Part shown: in pieces, positions 7,550 through 57,300 of the stretch
Layout of the letters: every line of letters starts with the position of its first letter
Position numbering within the stretch: position 1 is the stretch's first letter
Assembly (NCBI RefSeq): GCF_004010195.1
Contig: NC_057755.1
Coordinates: 8,399,286 to 8,463,285, forward strand
Direction: 5' to 3'
Source of the DNA: Chiloscyllium plagiosum
Lineage: Eukaryota
Length of the DNA: 64,000 nucleotides
Notes under the pieces: generated by a model
Database searches by the model: none
Told to the model about the DNA's origin: nothing
What the model saw: the letters and a program-made list of their open reading frames with translations, nothing else
Position numbers and translations under genes: made by a program

Positions 7550-8662
7550 TTATTTATTCATAATGCAAGGAATCCATGTAACTAGATGTTTCGCTGTGTT
7601 ACTGATCTTCGCTCTGAATCTCGACAGTGTTACTGCTTAAGTAAATAGAGTCATAGAGCCATAGAGTCACAGAGATGTACAGCATGGAAACAGACCCTTC
7701 GGTCCAACCTGTCCATGCCGACCAGATATCCCAACTCAATCTAGTCCCACCTGCCAGCACCCGGCCCATATCCCTCCAAACCCTCCCTATTCATATACCT
7801 ATCCAAATGCCTCTTAACTGTTGCAATTGTGCCAGCTTCCACCATATACTCTGGCAGCTCATTTGTGTTTGTACAACCTCTTATGATCTGCAGTATGTAA
7901 CCAACTATACGAAAGTTATATAGAAAAGGTGAATAATTATCAGCATGGCTTCCTTGAATAACATAATATTTGAAATGCCCAACAAAGATTGACCAGGAAG
8001 GATGAAGCTCCTAGAGATGGTGAAGTGCCAAAGCACAGACTTCCTTCTGCTCTCTTTCTCTGGATCTCCGCGATTCTCTCCTTTGCTCTGACCATTCAGC
8101 CTCTTCCGGACTCGACTGATCACTAAAATATGTCTGACTGTCAAAACGTTATGCAACCGAATTAGAGCGAATGGCAGGGGTCAAAACCGTGTCATGCCAA
8201 TCTAATAGCTCACACCAAGTCTCAGTAAAGAGGATCGGCTTTTCTTTACAAATTGAATGGAACATTGTTGGTTTTTCACAGAGGTTCACGTAAAAAATAG
8301 GAGGAATGTTTTTCAACCAGAATAGAATGCAGGCTATTGCTAGAACAACAGTCACAGTTTTCTTTTTGCAGCATTTCTTTTTCACCTTCTGGAAATAAAT
8401 GGTCACAAATCAGTCAAAGGAAGAAGCGATGTTGCAACAGGCACAGCAACCAGTGGTTGCGCAATACAGGATTTCCGTAATACTACATACAGGAGTGATG
8501 TCCAGGAAACACAGTGGGAGATAATAATAGGGAAGTTCCTCAGTATTACATCAGTGATAATGACCATCAGATCAGGAGCTGCCATAAACATCAGGTAGTG
8601 AGTAGCCCAAGGAGAATCAGCGCACTTTCCTTGGGAAAGTATAACAATCGGCAGCAAATTAA
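7550..8662 (-). pseudogene. GPR139/GPR142-like GPCR pseudogene, exon 2 only (copy A)
   Basis: Acceptor TTGCACAG|TTAATTTG at 8663/8662. Pieces VNLLPIVILSQGKC, KNIPPIFY and ESRRKSVL lie in different frames. The DRF Arg codon is TGA, and a CR1 tail is inserted in the TM7 motif. Confidence 0.92.
7646..7870 (-). mobile_element. CR1/HER1-like LINE 3' tail inserted in GPCR copy A
   Basis: (CATAGAGT)-type tail at 7646-7675; similar to 37600-37800. Confidence 0.8.
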
Positions 8663-8764
8663 CTGTGCAAGTCAAACAGAAAAATATGGATTGAATTTTT
8701 CTGTCCCTACCTATTCCAGATGACAGAAATATGATCTCATCAACAAAAATCAGAGCACGGTGTG

Positions 8765-8975
8765 AGTAATCGAAAATGTGATGCTGGAAAAGCACAGCAT
8801 CTGAGGAGCAGGACATTTCGGGCATAAACCCTTCACCAGCAGCCATTCTTAATGAATGGCTTTTGCCTGAAACATCGATTGTCCTGCTCCTCCGATGTTT
8901 CTGACCTACTGTGCTTTTCCAAAACCACACTCACGACTATGATCTCTAGCATTTGCGGTTCTGACTTTCGCCTGG
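8765..8975. mobile_element. Penelope-type terminal fragment with inverted copy
   Basis: GCTGGAAAAGCACAG ... CTGTGCTTTTCCA inverted pair; matches the end of the Penelope copy at 35770-35895. Confidence 0.7.
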
Positions 8976-9493
8976 CTGATTTCAGCACTCTGTGGTTAGA
9001 TGTGATTGGTGTCCAGTGACATTAAACTGCAAGATTTCCATACCTATCTAGATTGAACTCCAGTCTAATCACTCCAGAGATGATGGAGTTTGGAAAGAGA
9101 CTGAGCTGATGGTCCAGCCTAGGAGAGCAGAAGGAAGTTTGTGATTCTGTTTGGCTGCACGGTAACCATCTGAAAGAGTGCAATAGATTCTTACAGTTCT
9201 CAGCTCCAACTATGGCATGCACAGAAGCCCATTAGAAACCTCAGTACCATCCAGTCACAGATTGGTGATTGGACTGCCGAAAAACCAAATTCTTCCCTTC
9301 TCCATTGATCGGTTCATCTCCTGCTCTTGACGTTGGAACAAATCCTGTTTGGAGGAGCAACAGAACCGGGAAACAGATCACCAGAACCTGTGTAAGATTT
9401 GAAACAAAACTACTCCATTGCTTTACACAAATGCAGTATAACAGCATACTGTGCTCCCGTCGTGATAACACCTATGTGTTCGGACTGCTGTGA

Positions 9494-9701
9494 TGTTCTC
9501 CCCGTGTCTGCGTGGGTTTCCTCCGGATGCTCCGGTTTCCTCCCACAGTCCAAAGATGTGCAGGTCAGGTGAATTGGCCATGCTAAATTGCCCGTAGTGT
9601 TAGGTAAGGGGTAAATGTAAGGGTATGGGTGGGTTACGCTTCGGCGGGTCGGTGTGGACTTGTTGGGCCGAAGGGCCTGTTTACACACTGTAATGTAATG
9701 T
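9494..9701 (+). mobile_element. HE1-like SINE, 5'-truncated, young
   Basis: Near-identical (reverse complement) to 38770-38970; TGTAATGTAATGT tail. Confidence 0.85.
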
Positions 9702-9889
9702 CACTGTTCATTCGAATACATCACTGACCGCACTGTTACTGTCACTGTCAATCTCGATACATCATGAACCGCACTCTTATTCTCGCTGCCCATACAGTAA
9801 AATCACGACACTTGGCATAACTCCTTCAGGAAATGTTGATCAATGAGCATTAAGCTGTAATAATATATTAACATATTAATCATAAAAGA

Positions 9890-12835: not shown

Positions 12836-12974
12836 GTAGGTGTGTGAACAAATGAACACGTGTTTATTCCAAAAATGAAAAGAAGATGTTTGCACAAATT
12901 TAATGAAACTAAGGCAAACATCTAAAGTCGGCAATTTTAATTATCTTGAGATTTATACAAATGATTACCTGCTC

Positions 12975-17649: not shown

Positions 17650-17842
17650 AATGATTAATTGGGTCATCGACCGACTGCATTCCCACCTACCTTCCCCCAG
17701 CCCCACCTCCTTCCATTTATCTCTCTGCCTCCTTGAGCCACCCCCTTTCCTGATGAAAAGCTTTTACTCGAAATGTCGACTGTCCTGATCTCGGATGCTG
17801 TCTGACTGGTTGTGCTTTTCCAGCACCACACTTTTCGACTTC
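17650..17842 (+). mobile_element. Penelope 3' terminal fragment
   Basis: Aligns to 35690-35860; CTGATGA...CGAAATGTC motif. Confidence 0.7.
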
Positions 17843-18299
17843 CATTTTTGGAAACCCATCTTGTTCACTCATTCCTCTTCCTCAGTAACGACAGTACGTT
17901 CTTCTCACTTGGTTCTACATATGACTCCTTATCCTGAACAATTGGGAATGGGGAATCAGTGCTGACCTCAGCAGCAATGCAAACATTGTGTGTGAAAATT
18001 TTCACACTTTAATCAGTGAGTGAAATATTCTTCTTTAAAGAGGTCAGCCCAAACCGACAATACAGAAGGGCAGTTTTATAACATATTTTCATACTTGGAT
18101 TAAACTATCTTGATACAGCATACGTTGAAATAATTTCAGATCTGAGTATGGGGCTCAGAGTACTTGGGAATACAGTTGTTATTGCTGGTACATTCGAAAT
18201 TCTGGTTCTGTTATTTCATTCTACTATTTAAGCAGAAACTATTCTTCATAATTGGAATTAAATTTGTTACTGTAGTGTTTTTTTTCTGCAATTTGAAAA

Positions 18300-18452
18300 T
18301 CACAATAATGATGAGCAATGATGCAACCTCGATCTCCCCAAGGAGCTTCCACACAGTATAAGGCAGCGTCTCTGGGAATACATCAGGTCAGAGTTTCAAA
18401 CAAGGAGCTTGTCAGCTGCCTGAAGGGACAGATCACCTGGCACGGAAAAAAA
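18300..18452 (+). promoter_or_regulatory. Putative proximal promoter/5' UTR of the intact GPCR
   Basis: Homologous in the four copies that retain exon 1. TAATGA at 18306, CTCCCCAAGGAG at 18334-18345, TATAAG at 18357. Confidence 0.35.
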
Positions 18453-18519
18453 ATGTTTCAAGCAATTCAACAAGTGAAGAAAGTATTCTACACCATTCTT
18501 GCAATCATTGGAGTTCCTG
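18453..18519 (+). CDS. GPR139/GPR142-like GPCR (copy B), coding exon 1
   Basis: ATG...MFQAIQQVKKVFYTILAIIGVP plus G|GTATG. It is 67 nt with a phase-1 donor that joins exon 2 in frame, completing TM1 (GVPVN). Confidence 0.88.
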
Positions 18520-19067
18520 GTATGGCAATAAGACAATTTATTTTTACTTAATCTGCTACCGATCTGCTCTCTGGTTTTATCTTTTGAACAATAGCATCCC
18601 GGCTCTCTCACTGTTTAGCGTTATTCACATACCAGAAAAGTGACAGCAATTCACAGCGCAGCATCCTTGGTAGAATTCTGCACTGAAAGAGACTCCCAAC
18701 TGCATTGCAGTTGCAGCATTTTCTTCTCTCAGTGTTCTGTCATCTATTAAGGTTTCATAAAGGTAAAATATATGTGGATCATTCAACAAGTTAGTTCTGA
18801 ACGAGGATGACTGGATTTGAAAAGTAGACTCTGTTTTCTGTCATAGTGCCAGTCCTGCACAGCAATATCTGATTTTACTGTACAAATGAAGCTTGTTTGC
18901 TCAAGAATTGTATTGGTTAAGTGATAATATGAGTGAAGTCTTGCAAGACATTAAAAAGAAAAATAAAACAAGAGAATATAAATTATATCGATTAGTTAGA
19001 GATACTAGAATTAGGGAACATTGTCTAAGAATTAAGGCCAAAGCAATCACGACAGGTGTTAGCAAAC

Positions 19068-19322
19068 ACTTCTGCACAGAAATTGCGGGAGAGTTTTGGA
19101 ACATTCTTCCACAAACGGCAGTAGATACTTGATCAGTTATTCAGTTTAATAAGATAACATTGTTCTTCTTTGTTAAGCAAAGGGATTGAAGATATTTACT
19201 TCTGCACAGAAATGGTGGGAGAGCTTTCGAACTTTCTTCCACACACGGCAGTAGATACTGGATCAGTTGTTCAGATTAATAGGATAGCATTGTTTTCCTT
19301 TGTTAAGCAAAGGAATTGAAAC
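19068..19322 (+). repeat. Tandem duplication, 130 bp period, in an intronic CR1 tail
   Basis: ACTTCTGCACAGAAAT at 19068 and 19198; both units end TTTGTTAAGCAAAGG-ATTGAA. Confidence 0.9.
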
Positions 19323-20087
19323 TTTGAATTGTAAATCTTCACCTAACTGGCATTCCTGCGTGCAATTCCTCATCATCATCTGTGGTCAGGAAATTCAAAT
19401 ATTGACAGATTGTTCACCTGATCGGCGATGATTGTCATGTGCAGATGTGTACATTCAGAGTGTAAATATTAGAGCAGCCCTGACACTCATACGTTCTCAA
19501 TAAGGGAGTTATGCATGCTCTGTTATTCGGTATTTGTGTAAGACACGTGGAGTAGAATTGTTTGAAACCTTGTGTAGGTTATGAAAACCTGTATCCTCGT
19601 CTTCTCATGGCTCTGATCAGGATTTGGTCCAATGCTAAGACAAGGGGAAGATCTGCTGCAAGAAGAAGGGGAGCGTATGGTTTGTTAACAGTTCAATCAC
19701 TAGTTCTCTGACTGTTTGGGGGTCAGGTTTCTAATAGGTTTCTGCACCTGCCAGAGTTGCAATTGAGAACTTTAAGAATTTATGACACTCATTCAAATAG
19801 TTGCCTTCTAAACCAAACAAAATGTCTCACTTCCTTCTGCTCCCCAAGGGGAAGGGTGTGGCGTGCGCTCATTCACTGCCAAACTCCATAATCTCTGAAT
19901 TAATTGCGCTGGAGGACAGTCTGAGGTGGGTGTGAAAGTGTTAAATCTCAAATACACTTCCATCAACCACCTCCAATCATGCAGTGTTATGTTTTGGGTA
20001 TTAAATACTTATTGCCGCTCTATCTACTAACCTGGGAGCATTTCAGATCAGTAATTCACTGGTTCTTTTCCCATTTGTCTTCCACAG

Positions 20088-20989
20088 TTAATTTGCTGGC
20101 AATTACTTTCCTTTCCCAAGGAAAGTGTGGTGTTTCCCCTTGCACTACTCGCTACCTGGTCGTTATGGCAGTTGCTGATCTGTTGGTCATTTTCACCGAT
20201 GTTATACTGAGGAGGTTTCGCACTTATTATTACCCGCGGTCTTTCCTGGCCATCACATCTGTGTGTAGTGCCACTGGAGTCCTGTTTCGTGTAGCTAGGG
20301 ACTGCTCTGTCTGGTTTACCATCACTTTCTCCTTCGACCGATTTGTGAACATTTGCTGCCAGAAGCTGAAAAGAAAATATTGCACTGAGAAAAATGCGAC
20401 TGTGGTTCTAGCAACAACCTGCACCCTGTTCTGTTTAAAAAACATCCCCTTCTATTTTCAGTATGAGCCTTTGGTGATAATCAACTATGTATCTTTTTAC
20501 TGTAAAACGAAGTCAAGTTACATGACTGAGACTTGGTGGGTGGCTTTAGATTGGCTTGATACAATTTTGACCCCCTTATTGCCATTCACTTTAATTTTGT
20601 TGGTCAATGCTCTGACAGTCAGATACATTATAGTGACCAGTCGAGTCCGGAAGAGACTGAAGTGTGAGAGCAAAGGAGACAATCGCCGAGACCTAGAGAT
20701 GGAGAGCAGAAGAAAGTCAGTGATATTGCTCTTCACTATATCTGGGAGCTTCATCCTTTTGTGGTCAATTGTTGTTGCAAATTTCTTACATTATGTTATT
20801 CGAGCAGCCCATCCTGACAATTACTCGGCATTCCTTTATCACATCAAGACAGTTGGTTATATGTTGCAGAGATTAAATTGTTGCACAAACACATTTATTT
20901 ATGTAGCAACATTGCCTAGGTTCAGAGCGAAGATCACTACTACAGTAAAATCTCTGTTTACGCAAATTCATTACACTAAGACTAAATAA
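20088..20989 (+). CDS. GPR139/GPR142-like class A GPCR (copy B), coding exon 2; spliced product 322 aa
   Basis: Pyrimidine tract plus CCACAG|TTAAT acceptor. Open frame with TM2 AVADLLV, TM3 SVWFTITFSFDRF, Cys in TSVCS and FYCK, TM5 PLLPF, TM6 FILLW and TM7 NCCTNTFIY. Confidence 0.93.
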
Positions 20990-21049
20990 TATTCCTCAGT
21001 GAAGATCAAAGAAGGACCTTATTGTTTTAGAGCTTTTTTTTTTTGCATT

Positions 21050-21555
21050 TTAGTCGCTTGATGTTGGCATCTCTGCCTCAGTCAGCATTTATTTCCCGTC
21101 CCAGTTGGCCCGTCAGAGGCGGTAATGCACTGCCTTCTTGGACCAATTAGTCCATGTGCTGTAGTTATATCCAAAAACTCGTTAAGGATGGAAATCCACA
21201 ATTTTGACCCTTTGACAGTGAAGGAACGATATTATGTTTACAAGTCAGGATGGTGAATAGCTTGTCGGGGAACTGGCAGGAATCGTGTTTCCATGTATCT
21301 GCTGCCCTTGCCCTTCAGGGTGGAAGTGGTCGTGGCTTTGGAAGGTGCTCTCTGTGGATCCTTGGTGACTTTCTACAGTGCATCTTGCAGATTGAACACA
21401 CTGCTCCTTCTTAGTGTCTGTGGTGGAGGGAGGATCTGTTTGTCGATGTAGTGTAAATGAAACGGGCTGCTTCATTCTGGATGGTGTCAAGCTTCTTGAG
21501 TGTTGTTGGACCTGCATCACTCCAGGCAAGTAGAGAGTATTTCATCGCAATCCTA
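21050..21555 (-). mobile_element. LINE 3' end (L2/Crack-like)
   Basis: Reverse-complement homolog of 7038-7495, in the equivalent position downstream of the GPCR. Confidence 0.75.
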
Positions 21556-22614
21556 AAGAAGAGTCCTTATCCCAATAGAGAGTTGATCTGGAAGCCTGTG
21601 GATTTCCCATCTTAGCACAATCCAAAGTTATCGTCTGGGGAAATGGCATCTCCTTGCAAATAATTGCTACTAGCTTCAAACCTTCTGTAAGTCTCCATCA
21701 CAATCAAATCCTTCGAAGGGTTCTGATGAAAATAAATAGAATAGTCAATCAGAAAATGTTCCACTATTAAATACGTGGTCTCAATGCCCAGTAACATTTC
21801 AACAGACCCCAGAATATCACAAAAAAAGAGCTGTTTCAATGTGAGAAATTGTGGTGGTTCATTACATGAATTGCGAGAACTCACTCACCAAAAAAAAAAT
21901 CACAACAAATGCGTGGGCTCACTAATCTTCAAAATGAAGGTGCCCAATTCCAATGAGCTGATACTCCAATGCTGTCAAATCAGAAATTTCCTGTCAAGCT
22001 GTACTCAGTCAGAATAATGCTTCCACCTGCCTTATGTTGAAAGAGATACAATGCCAACTTTTACAGCCACCGTACAACACTGCCTACAGTGTGATGGAGA
22101 ATGAGAACCTTCAAGCATTCAATTAGCAATGGAGACATTGCCTGAAACGGACTGGCCTGAGACAGCACCATGGAAATCCATGGCAATTTAACATCGAGAC
22201 AGACGTCACTTTCAAATACTTATACAGATCTCTCTTGAAATCTCCAGTAGAATCAATCTCAACCACACTCCTGGGCAGTGCATTCCACATTCTAACAAAC
22301 GTCTTAGTAAACTCTCTTTTTAGCCTCACTTGCCGCTCTCTTGCAGATAATGCTGATATTTATCATGATGGACAGTGAAAATAAGAATGAGGTCAATTGA
22401 GTATGTGGATGGACAGTGTCAGTAAGAGTGAGGTCAGTGATGTCTCCATTGTTGGAAGCCTATCTTGTTCACTGAGTACCATTCCCTCAGGAATGGCGGT
22501 TTATTTCAGGTAAATTTCTGGTCACACGAAATTCTTGCATTATCAAAAAGAAAACTCCACAATGAAGTGCACAGGCATGCTGTGCTCTGTTATTTCCAGA
22601 ACAAATATTCTTTA

Positions 22615-23105
22615 TTTTTCTTCACTCTTGGGATGTGACATCACTGGCTGGGTTAGCATTTATTACCTGTCCCTTGTTGCCCCTTGAGAAGGTAGTGGTG
22701 AGCAGCCTTCATGAACAACTGTAGTCCTTGTCCTGTAGGTAGACCCACAATGTTGAGTGTAGGGCATTACAGAAGTTTGACCCAGCGTGTGAAAGCACGG
22801 TGACATACTTCCATGTCAGGATGGTGCGCGCTTTAGAGGGGAAGTTACTGTTCTGTTGCTCTTTACCCTATAAATGGAAGTGATGGCCTGAGTTTGCAAG
22901 TTGCTGGATGAAGGATCTTAGGTGAATTTCTACGGTGCAAGCTATGCATAGTGCACACTGCTGTTACTGAGTGTCAATGGTGGCGTGGATAAATAGATAT
23001 GGATGTGGTGCCAATCACGTGACCTGCTTTGTCCTGGATGTTGTCGAATTCTTGCGGGTTGTTGGAGCTTTTCTCCTCCAGACAAGTGGGGAGTATTCTA
23101 TCAAA
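22615..23105 (-). mobile_element. LINE 3' end (L2/Crack-like)
   Basis: Colinear with 21050-21555. Confidence 0.7.
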
Positions 23106-23769
23106 TCCTGTCAGTCTTTATCACATTATGCCGTGTTGAGTTGGCGTCCTGCAGATTCCCTATTGGAGAACAATCCAAAGGAATGCTCGGTTGAATTGTT
23201 TTTTAATCCTTGGTAATCCCTATCAGTTTGGAACTGTCTGTACGTCTCCATTAAATACATAGTCTCAGTTCTTAGTAATAATTCAACAGACCACAAATGT
23301 CGCAAACAGCCAACTACTGAACTGCTTCGATGTGAGAAATTATAACAGGTGATTTCGTGACATTACCAGAACACATCCACCGAATATTTATATTTGTGGC
23401 AATATTGTCCTGGTTCACAACGAAAATCAGTAATGCAGGAAACTGTCCAGTTCCACAAATTCGTTGGTTGATGTAAAAATAAGACTTCAGCATGATAACA
23501 AATGTTGGCTCCTTAGATTTCAACAACAAGCTTACAAATCCGAGGGGCTACAACTTGAAACCCTCCCCAAATATAAATTTCCTGTTGTGGGGCCCAGAGT
23601 CCAAATTGAGCAAGCAAGCTCCCTTACGTTGAGAGTCATACAATGTTACCCTCTTCTGGCTTCCCATCGCCGTTGCAATTAGGTGATGTAGGGTGAAAAG
23701 CCTAAGGTTTCAGTATGGGAGAAAGAGATGGAGGGCAGCAACTCACAGCACCATATGAACGGACAGCAC

Positions 23770-23960
23770 CAACAACACAGAGTCAGACATGTACACAATC
23801 TCTCTCACACACACACATACACACATGCACACACGCACAGACACACAAACACACACACACACTCAGACATACACAGACACACACTCTTTCGCATTCACAC
23901 ACACATCTGCACACACACACACAAATACTTGTACACACACACATATGCACACATGAAAAC
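23770..23960. repeat. Imperfect (CA)n microsatellite
   Basis: Direct reading. Confidence 0.9.
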
Positions 23961-36209: not shown

Positions 36210-36620
36210 GAACATCCAAACAGAAATATATTCAGCATATCGAGCGTGTTCTGCCATTCACTGAGATCATTGCTGATCTGTGACCTAACTCCATACATTG
36301 GCTTTTGTCCAATACCCCTTAATGCAAGTGCTCGGCAAAAATTTGTGCATATCAGATGTAATATCAAAAACTGATCCAGCATCCACTGCCATTTTTGGAA
36401 GAGAGTTCTAAACATTTCCCACCCTTTGTGTGGACAAGTGCTCCCTCACACCTCTCCTGAACATTCTGGCCCTCATTCTCAAAGTCCTTCATACTAGAGT
36501 CCCCAACCAGTGGAAATAGCTTATCTTTGTCCAGCTTGCCTTCTCCTGTTTGTATCTTGAAAGCGTTTAGTCAGATCAGCCCTTCACTTTCCAGATATTA
36601 GAGAAAACAGACCTAATTTG
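36210..36620 (-). mobile_element. CR1-like LINE 3' end in the intron of GPCR copy D
   Basis: Same position as the CR1 tails at 18890-19190 and 47235-47530. Confidence 0.7.
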
Positions 36621-36988
36621 TGTAACAAACCAGAAATTGTCGAAGAAACTGAGCATGTGTAGTAGAATCTGTGGAGACAAAGCAGAATTAAAGTATTGAG
36701 ACCTTCTTCAGAATTAACTTGCATGGTGTCACTTTATACCTTCAAACTGTATGAAATCGAAAAAAATGACAGAACACTGAGATCAGAAAGTGCTGCATCA
36801 GCAGTGAAGGTGGGAGTCTCTGTCAGTGGAGATTGTACCGAGAATGCTGCTCAACGAATTGCTGTCACTTTTCTGGTTTCTGGATAAGGCTGACTAGTCA
36901 ATGAGCTGGAGACAATATTATTCAAAAGATAAAACCAGAGAGCAGATCAGCAGAAGACTAAAAACGTTCAAACCTCAGAAGACCTTAC

Positions 36989-37054
36989 CAGGAATGCGAA
37001 CAAATCTACGATGGTGTAGAACATTTCCCCCACGTGTTGAATTCATCGATGCAT
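36989..37054 (-). pseudogene. Orphan exon 1 of a GPR139-like GPCR (copy D)
   Basis: ATG CAT CGA TGA ATT CAA...TTC TAC ACC ATC...CCTG|GTAAG. It has a nonsense codon and is 66 nt rather than 67. Flanks 36620-37590 align to copies B, C and E. Confidence 0.85.
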
Positions 37055-37599
37055 TTTTTTTGTGTGAGGTGACCTGTTCCTTCAGGGGACTGACAAGCTC
37101 CTATTTGAACCTCTGAGCTGACGCATTGCAGAAAAGCCTGGTATTATGTGAAGGTCGCTGGTGAGATCAAGGTAATTGAAATGCTCAGTTTCGTTGCTGT
37201 TTTTCAAATTTCTGTAAATGAGCAAATTGTTCACAATAACGATTTTACTTCCAATCATGAAGGATATTTGCTGCTCAGTAGATCATAAAGAAATAACAAA
37301 AATAAAACCCGAGATCTGCCGAAAATGACACTATCCAGTCATCACCATGACCCCATCCGATGATCGCAAATTATTTCAATCACCACGGCACCGGGACTGT
37401 TTAATCCAAGTGCAAAAGTATGTCTCAGAGCTGTCCTGCTAGACTCTAGGGCAGGAGCTCCCATTTTTGAATAAGAACATTTCACTCACTGATTGAAATG
37501 TGAATCTTCTCACAAACTGATTGTGTGCATTGCTGCTGAGATGAACGTTTATTCCCCATCTCCAAATGCGCAGGATCTGGAGGCACATGAAGTAGAAAG

Positions 37600-38265
37600 T
37601 CATAGTCATAGAGATGCACAGAATGGAAACACACCCATCCGTCCAACTCGACTATGCCGACCAGATATACTAAACTAATCGAGCCCCTTGTGCCAGCACT
37701 TGGTCGATGTCCCTCTAAACCCATTTTATTCATACACCCATCCAGATGTCTTTCACATTTTGTTATTGTACCAGACTCCATCGTTTCCCCTAGCAGCTCA
37801 TTTTGTACACGCACCACCCCCTGCATGATAAAGTTGCCCCTTAGTTCTCTGTCCTCCAGTTCAGGGCTCCCTCACCCCGGGGAAAAAATCTTTGCCTATT
37901 TATCCTGCCCATGCCCCTCATGCTTTTATAAACCTCTACGGGCTCAACCCTCAGCCTCCGACACTCCAGGGAAAACAGCCCTAGGCTATTCAGCCTCTTC
38001 CGTTAGCACATACCCTCCAACCCTGGCAACATCCTTGTAAATCTTTTCTGAACCATTTCAAGTTTCAAAACATCCTTCTTGTTGGAGTTAGACCAAAACC
38101 GCACACAGTATTTCAAAACTGGCCGAACCAATGTCCTGCACAACCGCAACATAACCACTCAACTCCTAAAATTCGTGCTCTGACCAATAAAGCAAAGCAC
38201 ACGTTCTTCGCTATCCTATCAACCCGTGACTCCACTTGCAAGGACCTAAGAAACTGTACTCCAAG
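37600..38265 (-). mobile_element. CR1-like LINE 3' portion
   Basis: Aligns to 14062-14400 and 7646-7870. Confidence 0.85.
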
Positions 38266-42525: not shown

Positions 42526-42529
42526 TTTA

Positions 42530-42868
42530 GAACCCTGTAGTACACACTTATCCCTCTTCATCACGAGAGTAAAAATCACTGAATTATGGTCACTATCCCC
42601 AAAGTGCTCACCTACCTCTAATTCTAACACCTGGCCTGGTTCGTTACCCAGAACCAAATCCAGTATGGCCTCACCTCTTGTTGGCCTGTCTACATATTGT
42701 GTCAGGAAACTCTCCTGCACACATTGAACAAACACTGACCCATCTAACGAACTTGAGCTATAGCTTTCCCAATCAATATCAGGAAAGTTAAAGGAACCCA
42801 TAACAACCACCCTATTACTGTCACTCATCTCCTGAATCACCTTCCCTATCCTTTCTTCAATTGTTACC
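42530..42868 (-). mobile_element. CR1-like LINE endonuclease fragment
   Basis: VVMGSFNFPDIDW...PTRGEAILDLVL...GDSDH. Confidence 0.9.
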
Positions 42869-42869
42869 A

Positions 42870-46135: not shown

Positions 46136-48606
46136 TGAGAACATTAGGGAAGTCAGTGATGTAACTGGCTGGACAGTGGCAATACAATGAGGGCACTGAT
46201 GCATCTATTGTTGGGATCCCACCTTTTTCACTTGGTCTCCTTCCCTCAGGAACGGCAGAATGTTTTCCTCCCTTGATGATTCATGTGACTCCAGGTCTTG
46301 GAGATGGGGGATAAATGATGATCTCAGAAGGAATGCACACATGCAGTGCCTGAGAAGGTTCATACTTCAATCAGAGAACGAAATGTTCTTATTAAAGAGG
46401 GCAGCTCCTAACATAGAGTGCAGAAGGAAAACTCTGAGACATATTTTCACACTTGGAATAACCTTACTCGATGCAGCATCGGTTGAAATATTTTGTGACC
46501 TTGGAAATATTTGAGTGGGCAGTGTTATTGTTGACAGATTCCAGATTATGATTTTTTTATTTCATTAGGGTGTACGAGCAGCCACACTCCTTCATAACTG
46601 ACATCAAACTTATTATTATAATTAATTTGTTCATTTACAGAAATTTGAAAACCTGGAATAAAGCTGAGCAATGTTGTAACCTTGATCTCTCCAAGGAGCT
46701 TCCCATATAGTATATGTCAGCAGCTCTGAGTTTCAAATGAAGAGCTGGTCAGCTGCTTGAAGGGACAGATCACCTCACACGTAGATATACACCGACAAAT
46801 TCAATAAGTAGAGAAGTTGTTTCACGCCATCCTTGCTTTCATTGGCATCCATGGTATGTCTTTATAATAATTGAACGTGTTTTAATTTGCTGCTGATCTG
46901 TTCTCTGGTTTTATCTTTGAACAATAACATCTCCAGCTCACTGACTGGTCATCCTTATCCAGGCACCAGGGCAGTGATAGCCATTCACTGAGCAGCATTC
47001 TCGGTACAATTCTCCACTGACAGATATTCCCAACTTCACTGCTGCTGCAGCATTTTCTGATCTCAGTGTTCTGTCATCTGTTCTGGTTTCATGTGGTTTG
47101 AGGGTGTAAAGAGAGATCATGCAAGTCAGGTCTGAAGAAGAGTCATTGAACTCGGAAGTTTAAATCTGCTTTGGCTCCAGAGATTCTACCAGACCTGCTC
47201 AGTTTCTCCAACAATTTTTGTTTTGTTACACAAATGAAGCCTCCTCGCTCTAGAATTAGAATGTCAAGGGTGATCTGAGAAAATTCCTATGATATTAACG
47301 AAAAATATTGGAAATCATAAACTATTCTCATTGGGTAGGGATTCTAGAATGAGGGAACTTACTGTGAGAACACCTGTCAGAGTGTTCCAGCTTGGGAAAC
47401 ACTTTGACATACAAAGGATGGTAAATCGTTGGAAACGATTTTCGCAAATAATAGTGGATGCTGGATCAGTTTTGAATTTTATATCTGAGGTGGTACATCT
47501 TTTGCGCATCAAAGAAACTAAGGGATGTGTGCCCCATTTTGCTTTGTAAAACGTAGTCTAACTATCATCCTTCCAGGAAATTCTCTCCTCCTCCCCGTAT
47601 TTGGCTAGTGAAATCAAATCTTGACAGCTTGCTGTCCTGATCCCTGTATGCCAAGAGTTTTGTAATGTACAGATGTATAAATTTAAAGTGGAAATATCGG
47701 AACAGTCCAAATACTCACACATTTTAGTGATCAGTCAAGTCTGGAAGAGGCTGAAGGATGAGAGCAAAGGAGAGTATCGCAGAGACACAAAGATGGAGAG
47801 CAGAGGAATAGCTGTGATTGTGGTTGTTACGACCTCTGTGTGTTTCATCCATCTGTGGTTAATCTATGTTGTAAATGTCTTATATTATTTCATTCAAGGA
47901 ATCAATCCTCACGATTACTCGAGTTTTGTGTATCACTTCAGGAGAGTTGGTTACATGCTGCGGAACCTAAGTTGTTGCACAAACACACTTATTTACGCAG
48001 CAACATTGTCTGTTTTCAGAACAAAGATCAGCATTGCAATAAAAATACCTGGTTACATGGATTCCTCGTGTTATAAATAAGTAAAACTCCTCAGTGGACC
48101 CACAGAAGTGTCATATTGATTCCAGAGCATGAAATAATCTTTTAAAGGTATTCACTTGTGCGATATGGGCATCGCTGGCTGGGTCAGCATTTATTACCAA
48201 TCCCCTGTTGCCCCTTGAGAAGGTGGTGGTTCGCTGACGTCTTGATCCACTGCAGTCAACAATGCCCTGAGGGAAAAAAAAATCCAGGATTTTGATCCAG
48301 CAGCAGTGAAGGAACGGCAATACAGTTCCAATTCAGGAAAATATCTAGTTGCATGAATTCTTTACACAATGAACAAATGAAACTTATTAACGATAACTAT
48401 ACCGGGCTCACTATTTTTTAATATCAAGCTTACAAATTCCACTGGGCAGCTAAATTAATGCAACCCGTAAACAGATATTTCCTATCATCGATTGCAGATG
48501 CAATAAAATGCAAGAAATCTGGCTGCTGTTAAAAGTGGTGCAATGCAGCCCTCTGCTGTCGTACCCAGGCCTCTGGAGGATTCAAACTCTCAAGGAATTC
48601 ATCAGC
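46136..48606 (+). repeat. Left arm of ~2.5 kb inverted duplication
   Basis: Reverse complement of 54820-57300; four ORF-track translations are identical between the arms. Confidence 0.97.
46787..48083 (+). pseudogene. GPR139-like GPCR pseudogene (copy C)
   Basis: Exon 1 at 46787-46853 has ATG>ATA and an in-frame TAA. The intron is fused at ~47718 to ICL3-TM6-TM7 (HILVISQV...LSCCTNTLIY). The acceptor and the rest of TM1-TM5 are deleted. Confidence 0.9.
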
Positions 48607-48639
48607 ACATATCCAAATGAATTACACCTTTAATCCCTC

Positions 48640-48810
48640 AGAAACTCACTCTTACACATACGCATACAGATATGCTTCCACGTGCACACACATAGAAAGA
48701 CAGACACCCACTCACACACACACAGACACGTGAACATGCACACACGCACATACCCACACATTCATGCAACGTTCTCTCTCTCACACACACACACACACAC
48801 TCACAGATAA
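48640..48810. repeat. Imperfect (CA)n
   Basis: Direct reading. Confidence 0.85.
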
Positions 48811-49404
48811 ACTCAGACTCAGTAGACAAAAAAAAACGTGGCTGTAATCGATGAGGAGAAAGACTGAGAAGGACGCTTAGTGGTTCCTCTTCACATGGAG
48901 GATGAGATGATTGTATTGATTCCTGTGCTGCTCAGATTGCTGCTTCACAGTTTTCCTTCTCTGGAGGTTCTCAGTGATTGAAAAGAGACATTCAGACTGG
49001 GTCACACATAACTGATCTCTAACAGACTCATTAAGAGGCAGAGCTCATAAGAACTGCTGAAGGAACAATAAAACACATTTCTGCAGACTTAAAGTAGCTT
49101 TTACTGAGAGAACAGAGAGATCCTTAGAAAATGGAGGCCTGAACGCTTCTCTGAATCTGGATCCTAGCCCCAAGATGTTCAGCAGACTGAGAACCAATCA
49201 CATCTCTACTGGCAAACAGAAGCCCTTTGTCAATGATAATTGGTCACTAATTCACAAACCAATAAGCTATTTGCTGCAAACCAAAACTCTATCTGTAAAT
49301 AACTCATTTCGTCTGCAACCACAGTTCAATCATTGGATCACTCTCAACTTTCAAATCATGCAGCAATCCTCCACCAACCTTCTGCTGTTAAAATGGCTCT
49401 TTTT

Positions 49405-49760
49405 TGTGTGTGTCTCTGTGTCTGTATGTGTATGGTTGTCTGTGTGTGCACAGATAGGTATTTGTGAATGTCTGCATGCATGTGTGTGTTTGTGTGCCTC
49501 TCTGTGGTCATCTCTGTACGTTTCTGCCCCTATATATGTATCTGTGTGCCTGCCTGTCCATGAGTGTTTCTGACCATATCTATGTAAGTGACACTCTCTG
49601 TGTGTCTGTCCGTGTGTGTTTGTGTGCTAGTGCACATTAATGTGTGTATTTCAGTGTTTTGTTTTTTGTTTGTGTGCATATCTGGGTATGTCTCTGTGTT
49701 GATGTGTGTGTGCCTATTGTGTATTAATGTAACAATCTATCCGTATTTGCGTGCATCTGT
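49405..49760. repeat. Imperfect (TG)n
   Basis: Direct reading. Confidence 0.85.
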
Positions 49761-49769
49761 TAGCGAGGC

Positions 49770-50760
49770 TTGAGAAGATTTGTAGCTCAGGTTGAGGTTT
49801 TGGACGCAGTTTTGCTCGCTGAGCTGAAAGGTTCATTTCCAGACATGTCATCACCCTACTTGATAACATCTTCGGTGGGCCTCGGGCGAAGCACTGCTGA
49901 AAATTCCTGCTTTCTATTTATATGTTTGGGTTTCTTTGGGTTGGTGATGTTCTTTCCTGTTGTGATGTTATTTCCTTGGTGAAGTCGTTTCCAGTTCCTT
50001 TTCTCAGAGGGCGGTAGATGGGGTCTAACTCGATGTGTTTGTTGATAGAGTTCTGGTTGGACTGCCATGCTTCTAGGAATTCTTGTGTGTGTGTTTGTTT
50101 CACTTGTCCTAGGATGGATGTGTGTCCCAGTCGAAGTGTTGTCCCTACTCATTCGTATGTGAGGATACTAGTGAGAGAGGGTCACGTCTTTTTGTGGCTA
50201 GTTGGTGTTCATGTATCCTGGTGGCTAGTTTTCTGCCTTTTTGTACAATATAGCGTTTGTTACAGTCCGTGCACAGTATTTTGTAAATGACATTAATTTT
50301 GCTTGTTGTCTGTATAGGGTCTTTCAATTCATTAGCTGCTGTTTTTGTGTGTTGGTGTGTTTGTGGTCTACCATGATGCCAAGGGGTCTGAGTAGTCTGG
50401 CAGTCATCTCCAACGTGTCTTTGACGTAGGGGAGAGTGGCTAGGGTTTCTGGACGTGATTTGTCTGCTTATTTGAGTTTGTTGCTGCGAAATCGGCGGAC
50501 TGTGTTCTTTGGGTATCCATTCTTTTTGTATAGACGGGACTTTCCTCTGCTCTGCGATTTCTCAGCAACAAACCAAGCAAGCAGACTTGTTTGTGAGTTC
50601 ACCACAGGAAATAACATCACCACAGGAAATGACATCACCAATTCAAAGAAACGCAAACATATAAATAGAAAGCAGGAGTTTTCCGCAGAGTTACGCCAGA
50701 GGCGCACTGAAAATGTTACATAGTAGGGTGACGAAACGGCTGGAAATGCATCTTTCAGCT
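49770..50760 (-). mobile_element. Penelope (Poseidon-type) 3' part with GIY-YIG, plus inverted terminal copy (50600-50760, +)
   Basis: KNGYPK and NVIYKILCTDCNKRYIVQKGRKLATRIHEH motifs; 50600-50760 mirrors 49820-49980. Confidence 0.88.
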
Positions 50761-50969
50761 GTGTGTATCTGTGTCTGTATCGCTGTGCAATGAGGTATCT
50801 GTTGTTTTGGAGATGAAGCCATTGAAATGGGGTCAAACTGTCTCTCTCTTTGTCTGTCCCTCTTGTGTTTAAAGTGATCCAATGTTAATAGAACATGGAA
50901 TGTGGAAGAGGACAGGGCAGTGCAGGATCTTTGACCCTAAATGCTGTGCTGAACGCTTATCTTACTCGA

Positions 50970-53170
50970 GGAGGGGAATGAATCAAGCCAGGTGTTAGAT
51001 TTCAAAGTAGGTGATCACCTTGGTCATAGTGGCCACAACTTAGTTACATTATTTTGTCAATTGAAAGGGATAGGTATATACCACAGGGCAAATGTTATAG
51101 CTAGGGGAAAGGCAATTATGATGCAGTTGGGCAAGATTGAGCATGCATAAGGTGGGGAAGGAAACTGCAGGGGATGGGCACAATTGAAATGTGGTGCTTG
51201 TTCAAGGAACAGGTACTGTGAGTCCCGGACAAGTATGTACCTGTCAGACAGGGAGGAAGTGGTAGAACGAGGGAACAATGATTTACTAAAGAAGTTGAAT
51301 CTCGAATCAAGAGGAAGAAGGAGGCTTATGTGAAGATGAGATGTGAAAGGTCAGTTAGGGTGCATGAGAGTTACAGGTTAGTCAGGCAAGATCTAAAGAC
51401 AGAACTAAGAAGAGCCAGGAGAAGTCATGAAAAGTCTTTTGGCAAGTAGGATCAAGTAAAACCCGAAAGCTTTCTGTAGGTATGTCAGGAATAAAAGAAT
51501 GGCTAGCGTAAACTTAAGGCCAATCAAAGACAGTTGTATGTGACGTCTGAAGAGATTGGAGGGGCGCTAATTGAATATTTGTTTCTTCAATATTTACACA
51601 GAAAAGGACGAAGTTGTCCAGGTAAATACTGAGATGCAGGCTATCAGACTAGATGCAACTGATGCTCATAAGGAGGAGGAGTTAGAAATTCTGAAAAGTG
51701 TGAAACTAGGCCAGATGAATTTTATTCTAGGATTCTATGGGGAGCTAGGGAGAAGATTGCAGAGCTTTTGGCTCTGATATTATGTCATCATTGCCTACAG
51801 GAATAGTGCCAGAAGACTGGAGAATAGCAATTTTTGTCCCCATGTTCAAGAAGGAGTGTAGAGACAACCTTCGTAATTATTGACCAGTGATCCTTACTTC
51901 GGTTGTGGGTAAAGTTTTGGAAATGATTATAAGACTGAAGATTTATAATCATCTAGACATGAATACGTTGATTAGGGAGAGTCAACACGGTTTTTTGAAG
52001 GACAGGTTGTGCCTCACAAACCTTATTGAGTGCTTCGAGAATTTGACCAAATTGTAGATGAAGGTAAAACATTTCATTTTATATGGATTTCAGTCAAGCA
52101 TTTGACAAGGTACTCCACGGTAGGCTATTGCAGAAACTGCGGAGCCATAGGATTGAGTGTGATTTAGCGGTTTGGATCAGAAATTGTCTAGATGTAAGAA
52201 GACAGATGGTGGTGGTTGATGGGAATTGTTCATCCTGGAGTTCAGTTACTAGTGGTGTGCCACAAAGATCTGTTTTGGGGCCACTGTTGTTTGTCAGTTC
52301 TTTAAATGACCTGGATGTGGACGTAGAAGAATATTGAAAGTTATTAAATTTTAATACATAAATAAGCTGCGGAGCTGGGCTGAGTGGTGTCAAATGCATT
52401 TTAATGCGGAAAAGTGTGAGGTGCTTCACAATGGAAGGAACAACTGGAATAAAGATTGCTGGGCTAATTGTAAGATCCTTGGTTGTGTGGATGAGCAGAG
52501 TGATCTCGGTGTGTACGTAAATAGATCCCTGAAAGTTGCCACCAATGTCCATAGGGTTGATAAGAAGGCATATTCTGTGTTTGCTTTTATCAGCAGAGGG
52601 ATTTCGTTTCGGAGCCATGAGGCCATTTTGCAGCTGTACAAAACACTATTGCAGTCGCATTTTGAGTATTGCATACAGTTGTCGACACGGCATTATATGG
52701 AATCATTGGAAAAGATGCAGAGGTGATTTACTAGGCTGTTGGCTGGTATGCAGGGAAGGTCTTATGAGGAAAGGCTGTGGAATCTGAGGCTGTTTTTGTT
52801 AGCGAGACGAAAGTTAAGAGATGCCTTAATAGAGACTAAAAAGATGATAAGAGGATTAGATAAGATGGACAGTAAGAGCCTTTTTCCTCAGATGGCGATG
52901 GCTAGCATGAGGGTTCATATCTTTAATCTGAGGGGTAATAGATATTGAATAGCTGTCAGAGGTAGGTTATTTACTCAGAGAGTAGTAAGAGCGACGAATG
53001 CTCTGCCTACAAGGGTAGTGGACTTGCCAACATTTAACTGGCCACTGGATAAACATATGGATGATAATAGAATAGTGTCGGTTAGATGTGTTTTAGATTA
53101 GTTTCACAGGTCGGCGGATCACCGAGGGCTGAAGGGCCCGTTCTGTGCTGTAACATTCTATGTTCTCTGC
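50970..53170 (+). mobile_element. CR1-like LINE ORF2 (end of EN, RT) to 3' tail
   Basis: MDFSQAFDKVLH, TSGVPQRSVLGPLLF and MHFNAEKCEVLH motifs. Confidence 0.92.
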
Positions 53171-53184
53171 TCTATTTTAAGACT

Positions 53185-54048
53185 ACACTAGCCGACATAG
53201 CCTTCATTTTTCTCTCATCCATGCGCTATCCAAGAGTGGCTTGCAAGTCTCTAATGTATCTGAATCTGCTACCACTGCTGGCAGTGCATTCAACACACGC
53301 ACCACTCTGTGAAAAAACAAACTACCTCTGATATCTCTGCAAGTCCTTCCTCCAACCCCCTTAAAACTATGCCCCTTTGTGAAACCATTTCTGCCCTGGG
53401 AAAATGTCTCTAGCTATCCACTTTATCTATACCTCTTATTATTCCGTACACCTCTATCAAATCACCCCTTATCCTTCTTCACTCCGATGAGAAAAGCCCT
53501 AGCTTCCTCAACGTTTTTATTTCATAAGACATGCCCTCCAGTCCAGGCAACATCCTGGTAAATCTCTTTTGCACCCTCTGTAAAGCTTCCAAGTCCTTTC
53601 TACAATGAGGTGTCCAGAACTGAACACAATATTCAAAGTGTGGCCTAACTAGGGGTTTCTCGAGCTGCAGCATAAACTCGCGGTTCTTAAACTCAACCCC
53701 CTGCTGATGAGAGCTAACACACCGTCTTAACAACCCAATTACCTTTGGTGGCAACTTTGAGGGATCTATGGACGTGGACCCCCAAGATCTCCCTATTCCT
53801 CCACTTTGCCAACAGTTTTGTATTTAACCCTGTAATCTGCATTCAAATTCGAACTTCGAAAATGAATGATTTCGCACTTTTCCAGCTTGAATTCCATCTG
53901 CTATTTCTCAGCTCAGCTCTGAATCCTGTCAATATCTGGTTGCAAACTACAGCAGCCCTCCACACTATTCACCACTACACCAAACTTCGTTGGCAAATTT
54001 AGTACACAATCCCTCCGCTTACTCATTCAAGTCATTTATAAAAATCAC
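53185..54048 (-). mobile_element. CR1-like LINE 3' portion
   Basis: LVRPHFEYCVQFWTP...VQKRFTRMLPGL. Confidence 0.9.
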
Positions 54049-54819
54049 ATGTTGATACTTATATTGATGCATACATGTGTTCATGTGTGTGAATGGTTGT
54101 ATAGGTGCCTGTGGACCAGCTCTGCCTGCGATGGGAATCACATTGTCCGAAAAGACAGTTAAACGAATAAATTAAAATGTGGTGAATCAAGGGCTCAGAC
54201 TCTCTCTCTCTCTCTCTCTGCCTGTCCTTTTTGTATTTTAAGTGATACAATTCCATCCACTACTGGACTCCCCAAGCCACTGCACAAGCATCAGATTGAT
54301 TTTGGAGAAAACATCAAAGCCTGTGAATGGCTCATTTTGTGCATTGGTTTATTTCTTCAAAGAATACCTTTGGACACTCAGAATCATTTTGCCCTATCCC
54401 TTGCGATGTTGTCCATGAGATATGAGGAGGAAGAGGTGAACATGCTCAGTGCTGGTCTCATCCCCTTGACCTTGAAATCCTTTCTCACTTCGAATTTGTG
54501 AGAGCACATCAGAAAACATTGTAAGCTGCAGAAAGTGATGTAAAACTTACCCTTCCTCCCACAAAATGGCTCACTCGAATGTACCTGTAGAGAATATCAA
54601 TGGAAATACTGCATTTGATGCGTATAATATTAGAAATACTGCTCAAAGACAAACTCCATTTTGCAGATGAAGCAAATGCGAGCATGTTCCACACTGATGG
54701 ATCTCATCCCAAATGCAACTGCCTCCACACCAGACGTGTGTATGTGAGTGTGTGTGTCTGTGTTTGGATGGTGCTGTTAGTTTGGATTATGCTGTAAGTT
54801 GCTGCTCTCTCTCCCTCTC

Positions 54820-57300
54820 GCTGACTGAATTCCTTGAGAGTTTGAATCCTCCTCTACATCACATGCAGAGGCCTGGTTACGACAGCAGAGGGCTGCATTG
54901 TACCACTTTTAACAGCAGCCAGATTTCTTGCATTTTATTGCATCTGCAATCGATGATAGGAAATAGCTGTTTACGGGTTGCATTAATTTAGCTGCCCAGT
55001 GGAATTTGTAAGCTTGATATTAAAAAATAGTGAGCCCGGTATAGTTATCGTTAATAAGTTTCATTTGTTCATTGTGTAAAGAATTCATGCAACTAGATAT
55101 TTTCCTGAATTGGAACTGTATTGCCGTTCCTTCACTGCTGCTGGATCAAAATCCTGGATTTTTTTTTCCCTCAGGGCATTGTTGACTGCAGTGGATCAAG
55201 ACGTCAGCGAACCACCACCTTCTCAAGGGGCAACAGGGGATTGGTAATAAATGCTGACCCAGCCAGCGATGCCCATATCGCACAAGTGAATACCTTTAAA
55301 AGATTATTTCATGCTCTGGAATCAATATGACACTTCTGTGGGTCCACTGAGGAGTTTTACTTATTTATAACACGAGGAATCCATGTAACCAGGTATTTTT
55401 ATTGCAATGCTGATCTTTGTTCTGAAAACAGACAATGTTGCTGCGTAAATAAGTGTGTTTGTGCAACAACTTAGGTTCCGCAGCATGTAACCAACTCTCC
55501 TGAAGTGATACACAAAACTCGAGTAATCGTGAGGATTGATTCCTTGAATGAAATAATATAAGACATTTACAACATAGATTAACCACAGATGGATGAAACA
55601 CACAGAGGTCGTAACAACCACAATCACAGCTATTCCTCTGCTCTCCATCTTTGTGTCTCTGCGATACTCTCCTTTGCTCTCATCCTTCAGCCTCTTCCAG
55701 ACTTGACTGATCACTAAAATGTGTGAGTATTTGGACTGTTCCGATATTTCCACTTTAAATTTATACATCTGTACATTACAAAACTCTTGGCATACAGGGA
55801 TCAGGACAGCAAGCTGTCAAGATTTGATTTCACTAGCCAAATACGGGGAGGAGGAGAGAATTTCCTGGAAGGATGATAGTTAGACTACGTTTTACAAAGC
55901 AAAATGGGGCACACATCCCTTAGTTTCTTTGATGCGCAAAAGATGTACCACCTCAGATATAAAATTCAAAACTGATCCAGCATCCACTATTATTTGCGAA
56001 AATCGTTTCCAACGATTTACCATCCTTTGTATGTCAAAGTGTTTCCCAAGCTGGAACACTCTGACAGGAATTCTCTGACGACGTTCCCTCATTCTAGAAT
56101 CCCTACCCAATGAGAATAGTTTATGATTTCCAATATTTTTCGTTAATATCATAGGAATTTTCTCAGATCACCCTTGACATTCTAATTCTAGAGCGAGGAG
56201 GCTTCATTTGTGTAACACAACAAAAATTGTTGGAGAAACTGAGCAGGGCTGGTAGAATCTCTGGAGCAAAAGCAGATTAAAACCTCCGAGTTCAATGACT
56301 CTTCTTCAGACCTGATTTGCATGACCTCTCTTTACATCCGCAAACCACATGAAACCAGATGACAGAACACTGAGATCAGAAAATGCTGCAGCAGCAGTGA
56401 AGTTGGGAATATCTGTCAGTGGAGAATTGTACCGAGAATGCTGCTCAGTGAATGGCTATCACTGCCCTGGTGCCTGGATAAGGATGACCAGTCAGTGAGC
56501 TGGAGATGTTATTGTTCAAAGATAAAACCAGAGAACAGATCAGCAGCAAATTAAAACACGTTCAATTATTATAAAGACATACCATGGATGCCAATGAAAG
56601 CAAGGATGACGTGAAACACCTTCTCTACTTATTGAATTGGTCGGTGTATATCTACGTGTGAGGTGATCTGTCCCTTCAAGCAGCTGACCAGCTCTTCATT
56701 TGAAACTCAGAGCTGCTGACATATACTATATGGGAAGCTCCTTGGAGAGATCAAGGTTACAACATTGCTCGGCTTTATTCCAGGTTTTCAAATTTCTGTA
56801 AATGAACAAATTAATTATAATAATAAGTTTGATGTCAGTTATGAAGGAGTGTGGCTGCTCGTACACCCTAATGAAATAAAAAAATCATAATCTGGAATCT
56901 GTCAACAATAACACTGCCCACTCAAATATTTCCAAGGTCACAAAATATTTCAACCGATGCTGCATCGAGTAAGGTTATTCCAAGTGTGAAAATATGTCTC
57001 AGAGTTTTCCTTCTGCACTCTATGTTAGGAGCTGCCCTCTTTAATAAGAACATTTCGTTCTCTGATTGAAGTATGAACCTTCTCAGGCACTGCATGTGTG
57101 CATTCCTTCTGAGATCATCATTTATCCCCCATCTCCAAGACCTGGAGTCACATGAATCATCAAGGGAGGAAAACATACTGCCGTTCCTGAGGGAAGGAGA
57201 CCAAGTGAAAAAGGTGGAATTCCAACAATAGATGCATCAGTGCCCTCATTGTATTGCCACTGTCCAGCCAGTTACATCACTGACTTCCCTGATGTTCTCA
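54820..57300 (-). repeat. Right arm of ~2.5 kb inverted duplication
   Basis: Reverse complement of 46136-48606. Confidence 0.97.
55358..56649 (-). pseudogene. GPR139-like GPCR pseudogene (copy E)
   Basis: Mirror of copy C with the same lesions; exon 1 at 56583-56649. Confidence 0.9.

Follow-up and report, generated by a model that had tools for sequence, protein, structure and literature searches.

The receptor genes in the window, the whole 64-kb stretch of Chiloscyllium plagiosum DNA analysed here, are a small, mostly decayed part of a large family of class A GPCRs, probably with two exons, that occurs in cartilaginous fishes and is a distant relation of GPR139. By itself the window holds a minor, mostly dead cluster, with one intact copy (B) among seven receptor-gene traces (A to G, Table 1). 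The interest lies in the family, whose sequences suggest that it may form a chemosensory repertoire that has so far escaped notice.

Anatomy of the cluster

Family-profile scores ranged from 71 to 422 bits for the pieces of copies A, B, D and E, far beyond chance. The preliminary description had reported five diverged paralogs on both strands within about 50 kb, only one of them intact. The five loci, their span and the use of both strands stand, and B is indeed the only intact copy, A, C, D and E all being broken. Five diverged paralogs is nevertheless an overstatement, as D and E are inverted copies of each other that match at 98%; the remnants F and G have to be added. The arms that carry D and E differ in 47 of 2486 alignment columns and show no difference over 1102 nt (47373-48474) spanning the coding half, a uniformity that may reflect gene conversion or an assembly effect. 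The gene was already dead when this recent inverted duplication took place. A word-based search with the 3' part of D as query gave 0 of 50 candidates, and a comparison with the PDB gave no match below E 0.35.

The copied unit comprises an upstream element, the putative promoter, exon 1, the intron and exon 2; copying was local and occurred in either orientation, and most copies died by deletion, frameshift or repeat insertion. The large family turns over by birth and death, as had been proposed. Elements related to the degenerate repeat upstream of A also lie upstream of D, E and F; only degenerate units were seen, with no clean 26-bp satellite array. Neither promoter nor exon 1 was found for copy A. 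C and A lie on the same strand and cover complementary parts of B (C up to the equivalent of 19286, A from that of 19465), and could therefore be two halves of one gene; they are more likely separate copies because A has its own upstream element.

Table 1. Receptor-gene copies and associated features of the window
Feature	Position	Strand	Description
Copy A, exon 2 pseudogene	7550..8662	-	5 internal indels, 2 stops
Repeat insertion in copy A	about 7647-7863		~217 nt
Degenerate repeat element upstream of A	9694..9826	-	
Copy B, upstream region	17841..18452	+	common to C, D and E, ~68-70% identity; putative promoter
TATA-like box upstream of copy B	18357		
Copy B, exon 1	18453..18519	+	67 nt; start codon and first half of TM1; GT donor at 18520; reading frame continues into exon 2
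Copy B, intron	18520..20087	+	1568 nt, phase 1, just before N1.50 in TM1; predicted from sequence
Tandem duplication in copy B intron	19068-19320		130 bp
Copy B, exon 2	20088..20989	+	second half of TM1 to helix 8; AG acceptor; open to stop
Ghost copy F	22358..23251	+	upstream element fused directly to 3' end and 3' flank; gene body deleted
Remnant G	23385..23489	+	last ~30 codons of another copy
Copy C remnant	36350..37600	-	upstream region, exon 1 and part of intron, without exon 2
Copy C, exon 1	37054-36989	-	stop at codon 4, 1-nt loss
Inverted repeat	46136..57300		arms 46136-48606 and 54820-57300 (98.1%), spacer 48607-54819
Copy D pseudogene	46787..48080	+	3' intron and first ~180 codons of exon 2 deleted
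Copy D, exon 1	46787-46853	+	start codon lost, in-frame stop
Copy D, 3' half	47718-48080	+	still open
Copy E pseudogene	55361..56649	-	inverted near-identical duplicate of D, also without first ~180 codons of exon 2
Copy E, exon 1	56649-56583	-	
Copy E, 3' half	55723-55361	-	

Copy B and its relatives in cartilaginous fishes

The gene structure first read for copy B (18453-20989) was confirmed, with 322 aa, an intron in TM1 and about 23 residues ahead of N1.50. Its exon-2 frame matches Pfam 7tm_1 (E 5.8e-19) and its exon-1 peptide matches the N-termini of 30 of 328 relatives at E<=0.01. N1.50, D2.50, DR3.50, P5.50, W6.48 and N7.49/Y7.53 are all present, which places it in class A (rhodopsin), while P6.50 and P7.50 are replaced, as in most family members. 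Copy B belongs to the family by its high identity (exon 2 up to 64.7% identical to the relatives compared), by its nested position in the family tree and by a shared signature (paired cysteines in ICL1 and ICL2, TM7 cysteines). Exon 2 keeps 63 of the 68 family columns conserved at >=90%; the five lost are as many as or more than in about 85% of relatives. Copy B is predicted to be a complete receptor: it retains the conserved residues for activation and those facing the G protein, and both cysteines of the TM3-ECL2 disulphide. B, C, D and E each have a short first exon that stops immediately ahead of N1.50. Among 262 relatives the N-terminus is short (median 24 aa), with 21-27 residues before N1.50 in 148 of them, as measured on protein length only.

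Rather than the few members genome-wide that the preliminary description had named as an argument against its view, the horn shark (Heterodontus francisci) has at least 110: 73 of 120 and 35 of 120 listed matches, together with P0007, make 109 distinct proteins, to which P0058 is added. Pairwise identity among the 109 ranges from 35 to 93% (median 61%). A shark, ray or chimaera name was attached to 120/120 and 119/120 listed matches and to 26 of the 30 representatives looked up, the rest being without species. Among named matches the family is thus found only in cartilaginous fishes, in agreement with a lineage-specific expansion; "elasmobranch", the term used at first, is too narrow, since a chimaera member exists. 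In Chiloscyllium plagiosum itself (run X5), the DNA contig depth over the coding bins of copy B exceeded the median of four intron bins 26-fold to about 1560-fold, which suggests many relatives and is not a copy number.

An unlikely alternative is genomic drift, in which a unit easily copied in repeat-rich DNA multiplies, only a minority of the copies are of use, and most of those still intact, with B among them, are heading for decay. One intact copy among seven traces, the recent inverted duplication of a dead gene and the repeated element preceding several copies are all consistent with it. So are the long branch of B in the family tree (0.65) and its weak constraint relative to the pieces of one relative: 21 of 509 coding positions diverge against 95 of 1482 in the intron, and the coding value is not significantly lower (p=0.06). 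However, one shark has no fewer than 110 annotated and diverged proteins with near-invariant core residues, which fits poorly with drift. The same holds for the persistence of members in chimaera, rays and sharks, and for dN/dS values below 1 (0.48 for B-A, 0.69 for B-D), which show past purifying selection.

Relation to GPR139 and the ligand pocket

By sequence profile, GPR139 is the closest solved relative of the family (85 bits, next 61; E 3e-23), as the designation GPR139-like had suggested. A single-copy GPR139 orthologue, also named beforehand as a contrary outcome, is not what we found: the horn-shark members number over a hundred, and identity between GPR139 and the family consensus is about 26% (a visual count of 72 of 280 positions in the profile alignment). 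GPR139 and GPR142, class A orphans activated by L-Trp and L-Phe, have the class A motifs and W6.48 in common with the shark family. They differ from it in copy number, GPR139 being conserved and low-copy where the shark family exceeds 100 in one shark; the TM3 cysteine, kept in 276 of 291 family relatives, is absent from GPR139 in the profile alignment. According to PMC6504862, the orphans GPR210A/B of coelacanth, gar and fishes are further subtypes beside GPR139/GPR142; they have few genes per genome, and we set them beside the shark family by description only.

The Trp/Phe pocket of GPR139 is formed by F3x33, H5x43, W6x48, R6x51 and N7x38 (PMC5430874). Copy B keeps one of the five, W6.48, a general class A switch, and all five are kept in none of 291 relatives, with two or fewer in 266. 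Because this pocket is not kept, copy B and its relatives are more likely not GPR139 orthologues. The amino-acid repertoire envisaged at the outset does not hold in its GPR139 form: although the family profile finds GPR139 as its best solved match and 25 of 291 relatives retain three or four of the residues, an aromatic amino-acid sensor repertoire using the GPR139 pocket seems to us very improbable.

Pocket positions vary strongly. In the 109 horn-shark paralogues, variability was 2.07 bits at 17 pocket positions, 1.35 at other outer-TM and 0.56 at inner-TM positions, a contrast computed on this family alone and generic for GPCR paralogues. Signatures of eight pocket positions took 247 different forms among 291 relatives. 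A conserved, putatively G-protein-facing half with hypervariable predicted pocket positions is the pattern that a repertoire of diversified sensors would show.

Candidate functions of the family

The best explanation, to which we give a little less than even weight, is that of a large cartilaginous-fish receptor family, with birth-and-death copying and variable pockets, most likely devoted to detecting external chemical cues. Since members share the signalling half and differ strongly in the pocket, each would probably have a ligand of its own, either a small molecule or a peptide, while using a common G protein for signalling. The cues would most likely be sensed at an epithelial site, for example by olfactory, taste, skin, gill or gut cells. 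The family, assessed without a control family, combines clustered birth-and-death with a diversified pocket. OR, TAAR, V1R, T2R and Mas-related/formyl-peptide receptors resemble it in these respects and in their short N-terminus and conserved inner half; unlike them, copy B has an intron in TM1 within its coding region, and none of 41 family members matched the corresponding Pfam families, whereas all 41 matched 7tm_1.

Turnover and pocket diversity fit equally well with immune surveillance, in which receptors on leukocytes or mast cells would detect peptides from microbes or damage in the manner of formyl-peptide or Mas-related receptors. Cartilaginous fishes reportedly lack MAS1-related receptors (PMC8455134), leaving this niche open, and in a Foldseek search the modelled fold of one member (Stegostoma P0063, pLDDT 89.6) matched peptide and chemoattractant receptors generically; GPR139 was not singled out and did not appear among ranks 1-50. 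By sequence profile, however, chemokine receptors come after both GPR139 and neuromedin-U receptor 2, and we consider the immune role somewhat unlikely.

Like peptide receptors, the family has the canonical disulphide and an ECL2 hairpin, which would also suit receptors for expanded endogenous peptides (neuroendocrine or reproductive), comparable to invertebrate FMRFamide-receptor-like expansions. FMRFamide-receptor-like and Srw clusters are the nearest Atlas neighbours after the family's own and share lineage-specific expansion, as in the published snail expansion of FMRFamide-like receptors (PMC11589774); they belong to different phyla, and Pfam Srx was matched by 1 of 41 shark members and Srw by none. 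Frequent pseudogenisation and hundreds of pocket variants would be unusual for receptors of fixed self-ligands. We know of no matching peptide expansion, and hold this role to be hardly credible.

A motif of olfactory-promoter type was noted upstream of B, D and E and dismissed as not above chance (0.46 expected per 250 nt). No RNA datasets are listed that cover 17800-21300. In a single-cell RNA run (X17, tissue not given, about 2% of the run read), 130 reads aligned, all only partially and without an exon 1-exon 2 joint, and no read supported copy B. This counts against the chemosensory reading, as does the lack of any GPCR among the top-50 "brain and olfactory epithelium" genes of catshark, a weak test for sparsely expressed genes (PMC11979771).

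Whatever its role, a family that supplies a single shark with over 100 GPCRs is at odds with the description of cartilaginous fishes as having few GPCRs in general (PMC8455134). Their olfactory receptor repertoire averages 43.8 genes, the smallest among vertebrates despite many sensory neurons (PMC10869828), a view that becomes directly testable with existing tissue RNA-seq. A bolder proposal, which we regard as doubtful, is that sharks, rays and chimaeras possess a further unrecognised chemoreceptor family from the GPR139 lineage, larger than all their known olfactory receptor families together and hidden under an automatic label; if the chemoreceptor reading is true, it would overturn the view that these fishes smell with only about 44 receptors. 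No description of the family was found in the literature searched, and the whale-shark supplementary files covered (12 of 24, and file 19) gave no hit. Most members bear the automatic NCBI name "probable GPR139", which misleads orthology and expression studies.

The receptor gene cluster

The receptor cluster in the window is small, most of its copies are dead, and it belongs to a large and real family of chondrichthyan GPCRs. As the preliminary description had proposed, copy B is a two-exon gene with a 322-aa product and the sole intact copy of the cluster: it is open in both exons, its 1568-nt intron is in phase 1 and its exon-2 frame matches Pfam 7tm_1, while copies A, C, D and E are broken. 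These four relatives sit at the positions first assigned to them.

Coordinates of copy B, its broken relatives and the additional remnants
Feature	Position	Strand	State or basis
Copy B, exon 1	18453-18519	+	six-frame reading and local searches
Copy B, exon 2	20088-20989	+	six-frame reading and local searches
Copy A	8662-7550	minus	exon 2 interrupted by a repeat insertion and damaged by 5 internal indels and 2 stops
Copy C	37600-36350	minus	upstream region, exon 1 (codon 4 is a stop), part of the intron
Copy D	46787-48080	plus	start codon lost, exon 1 stop, first ~180 codons of exon 2 gone
Copy E	56649-55361	minus	start codon lost, exon 1 stop, first ~180 codons of exon 2 gone
Two extra remnants	22358-23251 and 23385-23489		

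Five loci are present, but the five diverged paralogs originally counted are not five lineages: D and E form the two arms of one inverted repeat (98.1% identity over 2486 columns), which leaves four independent lineages. The arms show zero differences over 47373-48474 (1102 nt), with flanks differing by about 2.3% (chance about 5e-12); this tract and its inverted partner reflect either gene conversion or an assembly effect. Copy C is without exon 2, and a search of copy A for promoter and exon 1 found neither. C (36350-37600) and A (7550-9497), lying 27 kb apart and in the same orientation, carry complementary halves of the gene unit and might represent a single gene whose intron contains B; the separate upstream element of copy A argues against this. 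The whole gene unit has been duplicated in both orientations, and copies have often died. The dN/dS values, 0.48 between B and A over 260 codons and 0.69 between B and D over 109 codons, indicate that the dead copies A and D were once under constraint.

Size and range of the family

A phmmer search of 1.84 billion representatives with the open 3' half of copy D gave 77 matches at E<=0.001. Thirty of these were looked up: 26 carried a shark, ray or chimaera name and four had no species, the named ones being mostly annotated 'probable G-protein coupled receptor 139'. Copy B exon 2 shares 55-61% identity with the best of those looked up. With a member from horn shark (Heterodontus francisci) as query, 2382 clusters were retrieved at E<=0.001 among 6783 candidates, a number that is not a family count, since only the best 120 were listed and other GPCRs may be included. 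All 120 were chondrichthyan, and 73 were H. francisci proteins, spread over some 20 distinct contigs by a count made by eye. The most divergent member retrieved 761 matches, the best 120 comprising 119 chondrichthyan proteins (35 from H. francisci) and one unnamed. The 109 aligned horn-shark proteins cannot be isoforms, since their pairwise identity is 35-93% with a median of 61%. One further member was found, and the total is a lower bound. Horn shark has at least 110 distinct family proteins; a family of only a few members genome-wide, which the preliminary description had named as speaking against its reading, is not what was found.

Among 291 aligned relatives the best identity to copy B was 64.7%; closer orthologues may exist beyond this set, which came from D and family-member queries. 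Summed contig depth in DNA run X5, expressed relative to the median of four intron bins, was 26-, 1562-, 45-, 62- and 52-fold over the five coding bins of B. This is not a copy number, but it points to many relatives in C. plagiosum. In both DNA runs the depth peaked over 20212-20412, far above adjacent coding bins; conservation among a very large number of copies may be greatest in this TM3 region. X5 also contained two contigs near-exact to most of exon 2 and one with a single extra nucleotide in the early part of exon 2, which is either an allele of copy B or a paralogue.

The family proteins are present in NCBI under an automatic name. The family itself is apparently undescribed: no description of it as such was found in the literature searched, which included few subscription journals and leaves absence unproven.

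Binding pocket, relation to GPR139 and possible role

Position numbers were set from motifs, and we assumed a list of 17 pocket positions. Within the family, across the 109 horn-shark paralogues, entropy was 1.56 bits per position in the outer half and 0.64 in the inner half; it was 2.07 bits at the pocket positions, 1.35 at other outer-TM and 0.56 at inner-TM positions. Such a contrast between outer and inner halves is usual among GPCR paralogues. Eight-position pocket signatures took 247 distinct forms among the 291 relatives. The signalling side is conserved and the pocket variable; each member would bind a different ligand, all acting through one shared G protein.

A profile of 41 members run against PDB matched 473 sequences, with GPR139 at the top (85 bits, E 3e-23) followed by neuromedin-U receptor 2 (61 bits). 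Identity of GPR139 to the family consensus is about 26% (72/280, counted by eye). The L-Trp/L-Phe site of GPR139 is formed by F3x33, H5x43, W6x48, N7x38 and R6x51 (PMC5430874). The residues of copy B in these columns are R, D, W, Y and V, so that one of the five is kept; none of the 291 relatives keeps all five, two keep four, 23 three and 266 two or fewer. The supposed kinship with GPR139 and large family size held, but not the GPR139-type amino-acid pocket, and sensing of amino acids in that manner seems very improbable. For amino-acid assays the most promising members are P0229 and P0278, two shark proteins with four of the five residues. As aligned to the family profile, GPR139 lacks a Cys at position 3.25; in the family this Cys is present in 276/291 relatives and its ECL2 partner in 279/291. 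With a model of one member, Foldseek ranks 1-50 held generic peptide receptors instead of GPR139; Atlas placed one member among 'probable GPR139' chordate clusters, followed by FMRFamide-receptor-like and Srw clusters. Endogenous peptides are scarcely to be expected as ligands. Judged by sequence, the family appears related to GPR139, yet falls outside GPR139 proper. GPR210A/B are described as orphans (PMC6504862).

Cartilaginous fishes have a mean of 43.8 olfactory receptor genes (PMC10869828, whose main text has no match to 'gpr'), V2Rs dominate the catshark repertoire (PMC6368271) and a paucity of GPCRs has been stated (PMC8455134); the family had no match in 13 of the 24 supplementary files of the latter. 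Sharks go unmentioned in the accessible part of a GPR139 review (PMC12208981).

A sensory role is a testable hypothesis, and external chemosensation has somewhat less than an even chance of being the family's function. Several observations count against it. Single-cell RNA run X17 (unnamed tissue, about 2% of the run) gave 130 reads on 17800-23800, all partial and none with an exon 1-exon 2 joint. The 50 most specific catshark brain-and-olfactory genes include no GPCR (PMC11979771). The sequence preceding B, D and E contains an olfactory-promoter-type motif, though no more often than expected by chance. Copy B has lost 5 of 68 highly conserved columns, a loss matched or exceeded in only 15% of relatives, and its branch in the family tree is long. 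Against listed DNA pieces of a relative, it differs at 21/509 coding and 95/1482 intron positions (p=0.06). Immune sensing is an unlikely function, and genomic drift a decidedly doubtful account.

Other repeats in the window

Copy A, the ghost copy at 22358-23251, D and E are each preceded, in gene orientation, by a short repeat element in degenerate form (9694-9826, 22358-22506, 46136-46204 and 57232-57735). All the upstream units found were degenerate, and no clean satellite array was among them. The D/E spacer holds smaller inverted repeats, 49822-50760 and 52372-53919 (84% over 166 nt; 63% self-inverted over 1.6 kb). A run of 27 consecutive G at 63240-63266 is possibly a sequencing or assembly artefact. 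A decayed LTR-retrotransposon-like element spans 27004-33955, with direct repeats (27004-27709 and 33280-33955) 74.5% identical and a SCAN-like frame (28556-29155) scoring below the Pfam cut-off. At 1197-3981, direct repeats (1197-1834 and 3341-3981, 78.6%) flank an RT RNase H-like frame (2719-3015). A LINE endonuclease-like frame lies on the minus strand at 42511-42969, and the window is dotted with many fragments that we take to be LINE-like.
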